IMG/VR virus record: IMGVR_UViG_2563366830_000013 | Origin: a virus | Lineage: Duplodnaviria; Heunggongvirae; Uroviricota; Caudoviricetes | Direction: 5' to 3' (one strand) | DNA length: 4,813 nt | Shown here: one piece after another, positions 245-4,813 of the stretch | Position numbering within the stretch: position 1 is the stretch's first letter | Layout: the number at the start of each line of letters is the position of its first letter | Made by a program: the position numbers and the translations under genes | Notes under the pieces: generated by a model | What the model was told of the DNA's origin: nothing | Seen by the model: only the letters and a program-made list of their open reading frames with translations | Databases searched by the model: none

Positions 245-486
245 GGGCAAATCCAGCCGATAAGAATTGATGCTGCTGGTTTGTAAAAGAGAAGGCCGCA
301 AAGAAAGCTGAGCATCGACAGGAGCACCCGGCGACGGATGGGGTACTCTACTGCAGAGGTAACAAAAATTACCACCCCAGCCAAAGCCCCTAAAGCAACC
401 TCCGGAGGGACACCTGCAATAACTGCAGCAAGAGAACCAAAACTAAGCAACTGATTTAATTGCTCATTTGTTACTTGAGCAGACAT
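169..486 (-). pseudogene. Small two-TM membrane protein (holin-like) gene interrupted by IS2; native first 77 codons (486->256) fused to 28 codons read from the IS2 inverted repeat
   Basis: ATG at 486-484 is preceded by a strong SD (minus-strand AAACAGGAGAAAGT-ATG). Native part MSAQVTNEQLNQLLSFGSLAAVIAGVPPEVALGALAGVVIFVTSAVEYPIRRRVLLSMLSFLCGLLFYKPAASILIG has two hydrophobic segments separated by a basic loop. After codon 77 the translation (WICPYI…) is read from IS2 terminal sequence. It lies downstream of the tailspike on the same strand, where lysis genes sit in T7-like gene order. The holin assignment is inference only. Confidence 0.5.
215..255. repeat. IS2 terminal inverted repeat (right end, ~41 bp)
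   Basis: Last ~41 bp of the IS2-like segment; contains the CCAGACA core I recall as shared by both IS2 ends. The target-site duplication cannot be checked because the other end is outside the window. Confidence 0.55.
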
Positions 487-767: not shown

Positions 768-794
768 CCCGCAATATTTTGCGGGCTTTTTTTT
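768..794 (+). terminator. Rho-independent terminator-like hairpin (7-bp GC-rich stem CCCGCAA/TTGCGGG, 4-nt loop, then C + T8) immediately 3' of the tailspike stop codon
   Basis: Perfect inverted repeat 768-774/779-785 followed by TTTTTTTT at 787-794. The T-tract is on the plus strand, so it is canonical for plus-strand transcripts; on the minus strand (tailspike mRNA) the hairpin follows an A-tract and has no U-tract, so it may act bidirectionally or mainly stop convergent transcription. Confidence 0.6.
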
Positions 795-3700
795 AACGTT
801 CTTCCAGAGACTGAACCCGCTCTTTTATCTTATCCATTTCTCTGCGCTGCCATGCTGCCTCGATATAGAATAAGAGATCAGGTCTGACCCCCCATCTAGA
901 TCCTGCTGGCGTTATTTCAACGCGCTCAATGATGTCTTCTATTACCATCACTGGATTATCATCATCATCAACAATGATGCTCCCGTCATTATCAGTCAGC
1001 GGCATTTCCCTTTGGCCAGTAATGACGTCATCATATACTGCGGGATAATCGTCATAGCAAAGAAAGGCATAGCGGCATGTTGTGCTTTCTTCTTCCATGA
1101 GTCCGTGAGAAATAAGAACATCACGAAGTTGCTGCGCGATTACACCATGATGTATCCTCGCCCCTTCTTCCCCCTTTATAGCGACAGCGTTCAGCCATTT
1201 ATAAGCGATATACCTGACGTCACCCCAGGCATCCAGCAATGCTTCGTCAGGAGAGACCGGCTCTGTCTTTAATGTTCCGTCACTGGTAACCACAGGATTG
1301 GAGCCAAGATAAACTGTCGAGAACCTGTTTCCCGGACCACCAAGAGCATTTACATTATCAAGATAAGGTTTAACATCTCCGTTCTCAAAAAGATGTTCGA
1401 GTGCGTTATATACCGCGCGACGTGGAGTACTGCTTCCGGAACCATGCAACGTTATCATTGCACCATCTGCTGAAGACGTTGTTTCACCGCCGCTAACGAT
1501 TAATCTCTGAGCGGTAACATCATCAGACGGTACTTTCTTCGCAATAATGGCGTAATTACCCTCAAGTTTGACTTCCGCGCGAACTTGTCCTGATGTACCT
1601 GCATGGACAGTCAGTGACTGGACGGCAACATCATCTGTGAAATCAACGGGTACAGGAACCGTCCTCACGCCTGACGTCGACATAAAAGTAGGAAGCGTTC
1701 TGTTAGGAGTGGCTCCGTAGACAAAATCCCTTGAAACAAATTCTTCCTGTTTAATTTTCACCCTGAAACAATACAAATCAGCCGGGTGACCATCGTGAAC
1801 ATAAGGATATTTTCTGTTGTTATCCCCTATGCTCCATGGGTTTAGAAAGTCTTCCCCACCGAAAATGTAGTACAGCCAGTTGTCTTTGATACAAACTGAA
1901 CCAACACCAACCGCAGAGTTAACTATTCCGCCCTGATAAATCTGATCAGTAACATTAACCCACTCTACATTATCCAGACTCCACTCATTGACGTTAACTC
2001 TGGTCATAAATGTTCTTGGATAATTTCCTGCATAACGGTTATCAGGTTCTCCTCCTTCCCACTCACCAAATGCGCGCTCACTGCCAAAAATAATCAGCTC
2101 ATCGCCAACTTTGGCAAAAGGAAGGTTTGAGTGATGAACATTATTTGGGAAGCGAAGAGAATTCCATGATGTACCTAAATCAGAGCTTCTGTGCAATGAA
2201 CTACCGGGTTGAGTACTTAATGTCCCCCTGGTCGTCAGATACAGAATGCCATCATAATATTTTACACATGGCTCAGATGCATTCGCCTCATATTCTACAG
2301 GTATGCGTCTGCGAACAAAGCTACCAGGAGAACCGAAAGCATCAGAGAAATAGAGTATCCCAAGCTCGCGTGGACCAATATCACCATTATGGTAGCCAAC
2401 AGCAAAACTGTTATCGCTAATCGTCGCAAAACTGTGAATCTCAGTAACAGGAGTGCTTCCGTCAACAAAAGAAGGAATAGTTCCAAGACTGGTTTTTCTC
2501 CATGGTGACGAGTGAAATGATGTGCCAAAACTCCAGTATCTACCCTCGTTATTCTGATCCACATCCTGGGTATTTTGCGTCGTAACTGTAAAGGTATTTT
2601 TATCAATAACAGTAGTCACCGTCATATTCCCGGTAACACCTGTAACACCAGAGTTTGAGAAGTTGACAAAATCACCAGCAAATAATCCGTGATCAGTAAT
2701 GCGAATATAAGCGACTTGCTGATTTGCTGCTTTCGTTATACCACCATAAACGCGAAGGCTGCGACTCATTGGGCGATCCCACAACTCTGCAACCTGCAGT
2801 TTATTTCCTCTCACGGTCCGCGTCTCAATTACAGCAAAAAGGCGATTTCTGACAACCCCCATACTCATGCAGTGATAGTTAACTGTGGGATAGTTTTCAT
2901 GTAAATCTGTAAGCCATTCCGGCGTTGTCCAGGTCTTCCCGTCATCTCCTGAGCGAACCCATGCAACATGGAGGTTATTTACACCATGGCGGTCTCCAGC
3001 CATAAAAGGCGCATAGATGACATTGTCATATACAAACGTTTTATCCTGCGTCCAGGCGTTGTACCACGGTGTATCTGTAATTTTAAATAACTCTCCCTGG
3101 ATAAAATCTTCAGAAGCATAAAAAAGAGGCTGGCCCGGTATTCTCTCAAATAAAAAACGAGCATTTTTAAATCGACTGACATCCGGAAGAGTTGATACTT
3201 TAAAAGTAAGCCCTAATCCGTCAATTTTATAACCTGGAGATGAGGCTTCAAGGCACGCGCTTATTGCAGTGGAATCGTCATTTATACCATCACCAACAGC
3301 TCCAAAATCTTTGGGGCTAATAGCATCACGCATTTTATCCTGGAACGTTCGGTACACAGCCCCAGAACCATACTGAATAAACCAACCAAAACCACCAACA
3401 ACTCCGGCGATTGCAGCATCGACATAATTACGCATTGAGCGATTATTTACAGCGTCCTGCTCAAATGATGGATCTGCAAGGTTAGAAATTTTGTTTTGCT
3501 TTGCATCGTAATATTTTGCAAGCAAAGATGGTTTCATCAATGCACGTCTGAACCACCCAAAACATTGCTGGATCAGCATCGTCAGGTAGTCAAAGGCATC
3601 TTCATGCACTTCGGGGAAAAATTTTCCCTGATTGCGAAGGTCTGTGTCCTGCACTACATCAAGCACACGATCTATCGTAATTCGCCATCCAGTAGCAAGC

Positions 3701-3912
3701 GGAGACGGAAGAACCACAGAACCGCCACTATAAGTGCCCGCCCCAGTTACCGTATAACCGGTATCCAGGACCAATTCTGTTACGTTCCCGTTCAGGTCAG
3801 ACACCTGAACAACCAGGTCTGATTTTCTGAAAATTCGAAAAGTATACGGAAACGATGTCGTAACGCCGTTACCGGTGTATTCGTTGTGGTCAACTTCGGT
3901 TGAGACCGTCAT
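793..3912 (-). CDS. Phage tailspike/tail-fibre protein, 1039 aa: T7 gp17-like N-terminal adaptor domain, central endosialidase-like glycanase region with two Asp-boxes, C-terminal intramolecular chaperone (peptidase S74-like) domain
   Basis: Long uninterrupted ORF with SD (minus-strand CTGGAGATTTAAC-ATG). The N-terminal ~150 aa follow the T7 gp17 N-terminal pattern (YTGNGVTTSFPYTF…DYTV…DLRNQG…). Residues 202-215 DFGAVGDGINDDST. Two Asp-box motifs: SGDDGKTW (aa 321-328, nt 2929-2952) and SSDLGTSW (aa 576-583, nt 2164-2187). C-terminal ~160 aa carry a Ser877…Lys882 spacing (TSDGTLK) and …DAWGDVRYI…IHHGVIAQQLRDV…, consistent with a self-cleaving C-terminal chaperone domain. The overall pattern resembles K1F-type endo-N-acetylneuraminidase as I remember it; substrate specificity is not proven. 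Confidence 0.9.
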   Translation of the reverse strand: MTVSTEVDHNEYTGNGVTTSFPYTFRIFRKSDLVVQVSDLNGNVTELVLDTGYTVTGAGTYSGGSVVLPSPLATGWRITIDRVLDVVQDTDLRNQGKFFPEVHEDAFDYLTMLIQQCFGWFRRALMKPSLLAKYYDAKQNKISNLADPSFEQDAVNNRSMRNYVDAAIAGVVGGFGWFIQYGSGAVYRTFQDKMRDAISPKDFGAVGDGINDDSTAISACLEASSPGYKIDGLGLTFKVSTLPDVSRFKNARFLFERIPGQPLFYASEDFIQGELFKITDTPWYNAWTQDKTFVYDNVIYAPFMAGDRHGVNNLHVAWVRSGDDGKTWTTPEWLTDLHENYPTVNYHCMSMGVVRNRLFAVIETRTVRGNKLQVAELWDRPMSRSLRVYGGITKAANQQVAYIRITDHGLFAGDFVNFSNSGVTGVTGNMTVTTVIDKNTFTVTTQNTQDVDQNNEGRYWSFGTSFHSSPWRKTSLGTIPSFVDGSTPVTEIHSFATISDNSFAVGYHNGDIGPRELGILYFSDAFGSPGSFVRRRIPVEYEANASEPCVKYYDGILYLTTRGTLSTQPGSSLHRSSDLGTSWNSLRFPNNVHHSNLPFAKVGDELIIFGSERAFGEWEGGEPDNRYAGNYPRTFMTRVNVNEWSLDNVEWVNVTDQIYQGGIVNSAVGVGSVCIKDNWLYYIFGGEDFLNPWSIGDNNRKYPYVHDGHPADLYCFRVKIKQEEFVSRDFVYGATPNRTLPTFMSTSGVRTVPVPVDFTDDVAVQSLTVHAGTSGQVRAEVKLEGNYAIIAKKVPSDDVTAQRLIVSGGETTSSADGAMITLHGSGSSTPRRAVYNALEHLFENGDVKPYLDNVNALGGPGNRFSTVYLGSNPVVTSDGTLKTEPVSPDEALLDAWGDVRYIAYKWLNAVAIKGEEGARIHHGVIAQQLRDVLISHGLMEEESTTCRYAFLCYDDYPAVYDDVITGQREMPLTDNDGSIIVDDDDNPVMVIEDIIERVEITPAGSRWGVRPDLLFYIEAAWQRREMDKIKERVQSLEER

Positions 3913-4015
3913 GTTAAATCTCCAGATAGTCGCAGCACCCGTTGCGCCGCATATCTGGTTATTCTATTACCTGAAAAACCATATATGGATAAAAAGACTA
4001 TAAATACCAATAGAT

Positions 4016-4032
4016 ATTACCTTTCGGGTAAT
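4016..4032. promoter_or_regulatory. Palindromic candidate operator ATTACC-N5-GGTAAT in the divergent intergenic region
   Basis: Perfect 6-bp inverted repeat with 5-bp spacer. A near-identical palindrome ATTTACC-TTTGC-GGTAAAT recurs at 4395-4413, and isolated ATTACC half-sites lie at 3966-3971 and 4374-4379. The binding protein is unknown. Confidence 0.35.
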
Positions 4033-4068
4033 TTGCAAAACGTGCTGGATAGCAAACAAATTATTTGT

Positions 4069-4088
4069 TACTGTATAAACATACAGTT
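4069..4088. promoter_or_regulatory. LexA (SOS) box, near-consensus
   Basis: TACTGTATAAACATACAGTT matches CTGT-N8-ACAG and 17/20 positions of the E. coli consensus TACTGTATATATATACAGTA. It ends 19 nt upstream of the ATG at 4108 and would overlap any promoter for that ORF; it is also about 157 bp upstream of the divergently oriented tailspike start. Confidence 0.75.
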
Positions 4089-4107
4089 ATTGCATGGAGA
4101 AGATAAG

Positions 4108-4365
4108 ATGCAGCAGTATCACTATCCACTGGAAGACGGATTTACCGAAAGGATTCACACGCCGGGAGGCGTCAGGTCACTGGTGGAGGGATCGCACTTG
4201 ATGAAATTACTCCGGGATCTCGATAAGGATGGATTTAATGTCGATGGCCCACTTGCCGAACTGACTGCACTGATTAACTACGTCACCAGCTCACAGATGT
4301 CTATGCAGGATCTGCAAACACATCTCGACTATTGTGCCGAACAATTACGAAAACAAACCAGATAA
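4108..4365 (+). CDS. Hypothetical small protein (85 aa), putatively SOS/LexA-regulated; function unknown (candidate antirepressor or regulatory factor)
   Basis: ATG at 4108 preceded by GGAGA (4096-4100) at 7-nt spacing; stop TAA at 4363-4365. The ORF track's upstream in-frame ATG at 3985 has no SD and would make the LexA box coding, so 4108 is preferred. No transmembrane segment; no family recognised from the sequence MQQYHYPLEDGFTERIHTPGGVRSLVEGSHLMKLLRDLDKDGFNVDGPLAELTALINYVTSSQMSMQDLQTHLDYCAEQLRKQTR. Confidence 0.65.
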   Translation: MQQYHYPLEDGFTERIHTPGGVRSLVEGSHLMKLLRDLDKDGFNVDGPLAELTALINYVTSSQMSMQDLQTHLDYCAEQLRKQTR

Positions 4366-4504
4366 GGTTTGCAATTACCAAATGGAGTGCTTATATTTAC
4401 CTTTGCGGTAAATTTACATCGCACTCCTCTTGTGCCATAGTAATCGGGCACTGGCAAAATCCAGTGCCGGGATTGGTCTCCCGGATTACTACAGAGGCAC
4501 ATAT

Positions 4505-4524
4505 GCCGCATAAGCGGTTTTTTT
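4505..4524 (+). terminator. Putative Rho-independent terminator (short GC stem GCCGC/GCGG with 4-nt loop, followed by T7)
   Basis: GCCGCATAAGCGG followed by TTTTTTT at 4518-4524 on the plus strand, about 140 nt downstream of the 4108-4365 ORF and after a cluster of stable hairpins. The stem is short (4-5 bp), so it may be weak or conditional. Confidence 0.5.
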
Positions 4525-4678
4525 ATGTGTAAAGCGCACCTATTCTATGGTGGGCTGTGTGGGGGCACCGAAAGGTGCGCCGGGTTCCTTTGTAGCCGGT
4601 AAGACCAACTCTGCACAGTTCACCACCATCTGATTGGTCTCAGCGGTGGTGATTAACCTAACTACAAAGGTGATCGCT

Positions 4679-4813
4679 ATGAATACCAAACCTTCCATCT
4701 TTTCCTTTGAGTCATCCTGCCAGATCCGTATGTTCATGATTGACGGAGAACCTTGGTTTGTCACCAAAGATGTGTGCAATGCTTTGAATATTGATGTTAC
4801 ACAAGCGAGAAAA
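4679..4813 (+). CDS. Bro-N domain protein (phage antirepressor-like), N-terminal 45 codons; 3'-partial, continues beyond the window
   Basis: ATG at 4679 with SD AAAGG (4666-4670) 8 nt upstream; translation MNTKPSIFSFESSCQIRMFMIDGEPWFVTKDVCNALNIDVTQARK shows the Bro-N signature (F.F……IR…IDGEPWFV.KDVC.AL). Not in the ORF track because no stop is reached within the window. Confidence 0.8.
   Translation, partial: MNTKPSIFSFESSCQIRMFMIDGEPWFVTKDVCNALNIDVTQARK

Follow-up and report, generated by a model that had tools for sequence, protein, structure and literature searches.

Which function belongs to a short open reading frame (ORF) that stands directly behind a LexA box in an E. coli prophage, and how is it related to the regulatory genes beside it? 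We addressed this question in a 4,813-nucleotide stretch of DNA, here called the window, that is identical (100%) over its whole length to part of an epsilon15-like (Uetakevirus) prophage adjoining guaA in E. coli MS 196-1. The window opens with the 3' end of an IS3-family transposase gene (1-255) and a holin gene fragment cut by that insertion (256-486, minus strand), and matches of other genomes to the window begin only at 256, beyond the IS3 end. The minus strand then encodes a 1039-aa endosialidase tailspike (793-3912; Pfam End_beta_propel, 1.7e-232, plus other endosialidase domains), which is separated by a 195-bp intergenic region from the 85-aa ORF (4108-4365, plus strand, ATG start and TAA stop). 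Another 313 bp of non-coding DNA lie between this ORF and the 5' part of a gene for a Bro-N antirepressor (4679-4813, plus strand), a protein of 230 aa in full that runs on to L002 25371; the Bro-N domain is recognized by Pfam at E=1.4e-4 in the 45-aa window fragment and at 1.8e-13 in the full protein. In the tailspike, an adaptor of the epsilon15 type at the N-terminus is combined with a complete endosialidase (polysialic acid, K1 capsule) and, at the C-terminus, with a chaperone domain; the protein is equal in length to the tail gene product of phage vB_EcoP_ZX5. A preliminary description of this DNA had noted the LexA box upstream, the Bro-N gene downstream and the divergent tailspike gene, all of which hold, and had suggested that the 85-aa protein is the direct output of the SOS response, acting as an uncharacterized antirepressor, an anti-defense factor or a partner of the Bro-N protein.

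Comparison with known proteins gave a clear answer. Among all PDB sequences, the 85-aa protein matched only chain E of 5D50, an 86-aa 'Anti-repressor protein' (phmmer E=4.1e-47, residues 2-84 against 3-85), and BLASTP aligned it over its full length, at 88% identity, with SPC32H_020, the 'ant' product of Salmonella phage SPC32H. It also matched PHROG 450, an unnamed family (E=9e-48), and a tblastn search of phage genomes found 84-88% identity in the Salmonella phages SPC32H, SPN1S and epsilon15. The gene lies opposite the tailspike gene in SPC32H, epsilon15, phiV10, Tyrion and Klebsiella phages as well, and an alignment of the intergenic regions of the window and SPC32H shows that both keep the LexA box, the ribosome-binding site and an inverted repeat farther upstream. 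We are therefore confident that the product of the ORF is Ant, the small antirepressor known from Uetakevirus phages, and that it couples the host SOS response to prophage induction. Of the three suggested functions, antirepressor is thus the one that stands, although the protein is not uncharacterized, being an orthologue of the crystallized SPC32H Ant; the protein, its control element, its partner and the phage genus are all as already known from SPC32H.

The name has been missed because Pfam, NCBIfam and PHROGs hold no named model for Ant. The protein is labeled 'hypothetical' in RefSeq in all of the E. coli matches listed, and the 2022 paper on vB_EcoP_ZX5 left an identical protein unnamed and hypothetical, studying the Bro-N protein alone, as 'the' antirepressor. 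In agreement with the earlier statement that no motif could be assigned, scans with Pfam, NCBIfam and PADLOC returned nothing above threshold: there was no match to the DinI family of SOS proteins in Pfam or NCBIfam, and Pfam found none of the Bro-N, ORF6N, Rha or AntA N-terminal head domains. The single Pfam line, to DUF724 (17.6 bits against a cut-off of 38.4), was dismissed as noise.

The ORF bears the marks of a genuine gene. A good Shine-Dalgarno sequence had been claimed for it, and GGAG indeed occurs at 4096-4099, 8 nt before the ATG, within a block (GCATGGAGAAGA) that is kept in SPC32H. The frame is clean and its product lacks a transmembrane stretch, as described before; the product is also acidic, if only mildly so (pI 5.4, with 12 D+E against 8 K+R). 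Measured against the Salmonella and Enterobacter orthologues, dN/dS was 0.065-0.069 at a dS of ~1.3-1.5, that is, with synonymous sites saturated, a pattern of substitution that indicates strong purifying selection on ant. Absence or frameshifting of the ORF in related prophages, which would have argued that it is non-coding, does not occur; it is intact at 85-86 aa, a length kept in more than 100 clusters (90% identity) across Enterobacterales. The LexA box and ant are carried together by 527 of 5426 complete E. coli genomes (~10%), counted as matches to at least 80% of a 326-base query that spans both (4040-4365) at 90% identity or more.

Many automatic gene calls start instead at an in-frame ATG at 3985, giving a 126-aa ORF (3985-4365); one cluster of such proteins has 833 member sequences. 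Because the longer ORF would cross both the LexA box and the operator described below, and because it disagrees with the 86-aa length of the crystallized protein, the 3985 start is almost certainly wrong and 4108 the true one.

The LexA box, TACTGTATAAACATACAGT (4069-4087), has no mismatch to TACTGT-N8-ACAGT and overlaps the core promoter or leader of ant; in shuffles of the window, 0.04 perfect matches were expected by chance. We compared 17 loci from 9 genera, comprising the window, 8 phages and 8 genomic loci (from Citrobacter, Superficieibacter, Pseudocitrobacter, Scandinavium, Kluyvera, Klebsiella and Buttiauxella). Every one of them has a LexA-type box, 34-46 nt before the ant start codon. 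The half-sites read CTGT-N8-ACAG in 12 loci and ATGT-N8-ACAG in the other 5 (the Klebsiella loci, Superficieibacter and Kluyvera), where the box is otherwise near-consensus (TATATGTATATATATACAGTA). The suggestion that Ant is a direct SOS output fits this conservation. A promoter scan upstream of ant yielded no promoter-like site and no convincing conserved -35/-10 pair; two promoters picked by hand, TTGTTA-17-TATTGC around the LexA box and one with TTTGCA by the operator, were discarded, as neither is conserved in SPC32H or in Tyrion. Between operator and LexA box, the block TGCTGGATAG (4043-4052) is kept from E. coli to Enterobacter phages, and Klebsiella-type loci retain its CTGGAA.

The source prophage also encodes the cognate repressor. 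A 194-aa Rep homologue, WP_000836293.1, occupies the syntenic immunity position (L003:12431-13015, minus strand), and its match to the 'Repressor' of 5D50 (chain A) has an E-value of 1.7e-41. Over its whole length, the E. coli protein shows 42% identity to SPC32H Rep; the figure is 54% for the N-terminal, DNA-binding part and 48% for the last 48 residues. Pfam recognized helix-turn-helix (HTH) domains alone in it, and the S24 peptidase domain responsible for self-cleavage was not found. Given that Rep has diverged from its SPC32H counterpart far more than Ant has (42% against 88% identity), binding of the E. coli Ant to the E. coli Rep is an inference.

The sites at which this repressor would act can also be recognized. 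The inverted repeat TTACC-N5-GGTAA occurs at 4017-4031, upstream of both ant and the divergent tailspike gene, and precedes the LexA box of ant by ~50 bp. Of the 17 loci, 16 have kept it, the equivalent site is marked as a repressor binding site in the GenBank record of epsilon15, and the same repeat lies between rep and cro in SPC32H as well as in the E. coli prophage, with ~10 copies in SPC32H and ~15 across two E. coli loci. On these grounds, the repeat at 4017-4031 is very likely a Rep operator, which may act on ant, on the promoter of the divergent tailspike gene or on both. A second presumed Rep operator (4397-4411) abuts the -35 element of the isrK-like promoter discussed below, and operator half-sites occur near 3966-3971 and 4374-4379. 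Presumed Rep operators stand beside the ant region and beside both isrK-like promoter regions of the prophage, an arrangement in which loss of Rep could feed forward as positive feedback.

Taken together with what has been reported for SPC32H, these features suggest how DNA damage would lead to induction. In an undamaged lysogen, host LexA bound to the box at 4069-4087 would keep ant off; upon damage, RecA would become active, LexA would cleave itself and ant would be transcribed. Ant, a tetramer in SPC32H, would then bind the C-terminal domain of Rep. The Rep tetramer would come apart into dimers, these would leave the TTACC-N5-GGTAA operators, and the lytic genes would be turned on. Rep could not sense RecA by itself, since it has no self-cleavage domain. 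Kim and Ryu (J Virol 87:11775, 2013) reportedly described the LexA control of SPC32H ant, and the study of Kim et al. (PNAS 113:E2480, 2016) reportedly agrees with the Ant–Rep mechanism given by citing papers. For SPC32H, Ant is reported to be a tetramer, to be sufficient in that phage and to split the Rep tetramer on binding, and PMC9986798 assigns both tetramerization and Ant binding to the Rep C-terminal domain. A review, PMC7380047, describes several Salmonella prophages in which LexA self-cleavage leads to production of an antirepressor that inhibits the repressor by protein-protein contact, and names Kim and Ryu 2013, on SPC32H, as one of three papers for LexA-controlled antirepressors. 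The E. coli prophage has the orthologue, the conserved LexA box, the synteny and the cognate Rep, and by analogy the steps of SPC32H (LexA control, Rep binding and tetramer disassembly) would operate in it.

Whether induction of this particular copy ends in phage is a separate matter. IS3 insertions interrupt the MS 196-1 prophage twice, in a holin gene and in a structural gene (L002 31887-33100), and on that account it is probably defective, so that its induction may yield no phage. If so, the importance of its Ant could lie mainly in action on other, related repressors of the cell, as has been shown for Gifsy prophages.

Directly 3' of ant, at 4435-4670, lies what is, by its covariance-model matches and base pairing, an IsrK/C4 RNA switch of the P1 immI and Gifsy-1 isrK type. 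Its predicted promoter, TTTACA-17-CATAGT with a TG element (4413-4441, plus strand), has its predicted start at position 1 of the isrK match and is kept in Tyrion and in loci L013, L014, L016 and L017. The IsrK-like RNA (4448-4524, plus strand; Rfam isrK 74.7 bits, gathering score 50; c4-a1b1 39.9 bits) contains the C4 target sites a1 (4473-4479) and b1 (4489-4497) and ends in a terminator-like site, a stem at 4505-4518 followed by a T run up to 4524. A C4-type antisense RNA follows on the same strand (4543-4630; RF01695 78.6 bits, gathering score 45), and beyond it stand the target sites a2 (4634-4640) and b2 (4662-4670), the latter overlapping the Shine-Dalgarno sequence of the Bro-N gene. 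C4 positions 4602-4608 and 4587-4595 are exact complements (7 and 9 nt) of a2 and b2, such that the C4 loops pair exactly with TTGGTCT (4473-4479 and 4634-4640) and with CTACAAAGG (4662-4670). A 28-aa ORF overlies the C4 gene (4547-4633) at the position of Gifsy-1 orf45; it is shorter than orf45 and stops short of the Bro-N start by 45 nt. Protein annotations have been placed over C4 genes elsewhere, namely an 'ash family protein' in phage ZX5 (L011 1955-2068) and a 'frameshifted Rha family' pseudogene in MS 196-1 (L002 29060-29156).

The gene for Ant and this switch may not be transcribed independently. On the plus strand of the scanned region (3880-4813), the only terminator-like site is that of IsrK; a hairpin at 4385-4427 was considered as an ant terminator and rejected, as it has no T run and represents an extended palindrome around the Rep operator. 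With no terminator before that of IsrK, ant transcripts probably carry IsrK sequence at their 3' ends. An IsrK/C4/Bro-N-type module is immediately next to ant in 8 of the 17 loci, where IsrK begins ~83 nt after the ant stop codon, lies further along in 3 and is absent, within the flanks, from 6 (SPC32H, epsilon15, BUCT711 and three genomic loci). For three phages, the megablast match to the window stops at the ant stop codon, which indicates that ant and the IsrK/C4 unit are separate mosaic blocks.

The MS 196-1 prophage has a second IsrK/C4 module (L002 29060-29246, minus strand), ~4.5 kb beyond the window, that precedes a 168-aa ORF and an ORF6N antirepressor gene. Here, target and C4 have changed in step, from TTGGTCT/AGACCAA to TTGGCGT/ACGCCAA at one pair of sites and from CTACAAAGG/CCTTTGTAG to a CTAGTAG-type target and CCTACTAG at the other. 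Because the C4 loops and both target pairs have co-changed, the prophage has two RNA switches of different specificity.

The antirepressors behind these switches are themselves related to Ant. The C-terminal domain of the Bro-N protein (residues 147-228, beyond the window) is homologous to the whole of Ant (42% identity, BLASTP E=6e-16) and matches PHROG 450 (E=3e-37) and 5d50_E (E=9e-14). The ORF6N antirepressor (L002 27796-28515, minus strand), encoded 3 kb past the Bro-N gene, ends in 80 residues that are identical to those at the end of the Bro-N protein; identity between free-standing Ant and these fused domains is 37-42%. The Bro-N protein of vB_EcoP_ZX5 ends in an Ant domain too; when it was overexpressed, according to the paper on that phage, the prophage titer went from 10^9 to 10^6 PFU/mL. 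A profile search run exhaustively against 1.84 billion representative proteins placed the Ant domain, for which neither Pfam nor NCBIfam has a model, in only 49 clusters (50% identity), mostly stand-alone proteins of 80-95 aa and a few in which it is C-terminal to Rha, Bro-N or AntA; wherever Pfam could name the N-terminal domain of a fusion, it was an antirepressor-type head. A word-indexed protein search with Ant found close relatives of 85-127 aa only, and no fusions. By these homologies, Ant is a free-standing copy of the C-terminal module of larger antirepressors, and since Ant contacts Rep in the crystal, the module is probably the part by which those proteins recognize a repressor.

The Bro-N-Ant and ORF6N-Ant genes sit behind IsrK/C4 switches and not behind LexA boxes, and we tentatively propose that the Ant fold is a portable repressor-binding module put to three uses, under three triggers, in this one prophage: alone behind a LexA box, on a Bro-N head behind one IsrK/C4 switch, and on an ORF6N head behind a second switch of other base-pairing specificity. 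As part of the same tentative proposal, the first use could be coupled to the second. SOS transcription through ant would add IsrK-like a1/b1 RNA to the cell, and this RNA might titrate C4, or work in the manner of Gifsy-1 IsrK, thereby unlocking translation of the Bro-N-Ant protein, with the result that DNA damage would call up a second, stronger antirepressor.

The same homology invites a different interpretation, in which the chief role of Ant is to serve the Bro-N-Ant and ORF6N-Ant proteins as a subunit or modulator, co-assembling or competing with them rather than acting alone on Rep. Whole Ant corresponds to the C-terminal ~80 residues of both proteins, the shared domain oligomerizes, with Ant reported to be a tetramer, and ant is immediately next to the module in 8 of the 17 loci and near it in 3 more. 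Against this, the six module-less loci have ant all the same, SPC32H Ant is reported to be sufficient in a phage with a single Ant-domain copy, and at 37-42% identity between stand-alone and fused domains the formation of mixed oligomers is uncertain. We regard this interpretation as improbable. The idea of a partnership with the Bro-N protein, raised in the preliminary description, finds no support in the form in which it was put, given that ant occurs without Bro-N and that a mosaic junction falls at the ant stop codon; a real link exists all the same, in that Ant is homologous to the C-terminal part of the Bro-N protein.

An anti-defense or host-directed SOS factor unrelated to repressor control, the other function that had been suggested, would account for a small, mildly acidic, early-expressed protein, features shared by many anti-defense proteins, to which no Pfam or NCBIfam model gives a function. 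What it leaves unexplained is the full-length identity of 88% to a protein crystallized bound to a phage repressor, the cognate Rep in the same prophage and the ~49 clusters in which all nameable fusion heads are of the antirepressor type. PADLOC, a library of defense rather than anti-defense models, gave no match, and we found no support for this function, which we consider highly improbable. That the ORF is merely a chance, untranslated frame in a regulatory spacer has nothing but its short length to recommend it; the idea is refuted by the conservation pattern (dN/dS ~0.065 with saturated synonymous sites, length kept in more than 100 clusters) and by an orthologue that has been expressed and crystallized, and its probability is negligible. 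An antirepressor that frees the prophage from Rep upon DNA damage remains the reading that we adopt.

The main practical value of this assignment is a corrected annotation for a protein that is widely labeled hypothetical. The prophages concerned are specific for the K1 capsule, as judged by the endosialidase, and reside in extraintestinal E. coli, in which Ant is the likely route for induction of K1-specific prophages by DNA-damaging antibiotics. If the module hypothesis is true, it would be through their C-terminal domains that many 'antirepressors' of the Bro-N, ORF6N, Rha and AntA types recognize the repressor, and one prophage could wire such a domain to several independent triggers. In the literature accessible to us, we did not find described the homology of Ant to the C-termini of Bro-N/ORF6N/Rha/AntA proteins, the occurrence within a single prophage of three genes with an Ant domain, one of them under LexA and the others under two distinct C4 switches, or the possible read-through coupling of ant and IsrK. 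These three additions are modest extensions and not a new kind of system, and the RNA switch beside ant is itself of a known kind, represented by P1 c4 and Gifsy-1 IsrK.

The closest known system is the Ant/Rep/LexA circuit of SPC32H (PDB 5D50 and 5D4Z). Both circuits have an Ant of equal length (88% identity), the same LexA half-sites in the same place, an ant gene divergent from the tailspike gene, a TTACC-N5-GGTAA operator and a Rep with HTH but without a peptidase domain. They differ in Rep, which is only 42% identical, and in what follows ant: a GC-rich hairpin and convergent genes in SPC32H, and in E. coli the IsrK/C4 switch and Bro-N-Ant gene, with no terminator in between. The names differ as well, as the E. 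coli protein has remained 'hypothetical' in RefSeq and in the vB_EcoP_ZX5 paper.

In its manner of working, Ant also resembles Tum of coliphage 186 and GfoA/GfhA/GftA of the Gifsy prophages, which are small LexA-controlled antirepressors that act by protein-protein contact on a non-cleavable repressor. The likeness is one of working and does not set them in one family; the Pfam and PHROG results for Ant include no Tum-named family, and it is the Tum/Gifsy-type antirepressors that a review calls homologous (PMC7380047). The multidomain Bro-N, ORF6N, Rha and AntA antirepressors, on the other hand, share the Ant domain as their C-terminal module and differ from the 85-aa protein in having a head domain.

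The module next to ant, as distinct from ant itself, has its counterparts in P1 immI (c4 RNA, icd, ant) and Gifsy-1 isrK-orf45-anrP. The isrK and C4 matches score above their gathering thresholds, and, as in these systems, a1/b1 and a2/b2 complement the C4 loops and b2 lies over the ribosome-binding site of an antirepressor gene; in Gifsy-1, translation of the antirepressor gene that follows is activated by the short IsrK RNA. Unlike P1, the E. coli module has no icd gene, and unlike both P1 and Gifsy-1, it stands directly 3' of a LexA-controlled gene and governs an antirepressor that ends in an Ant domain.
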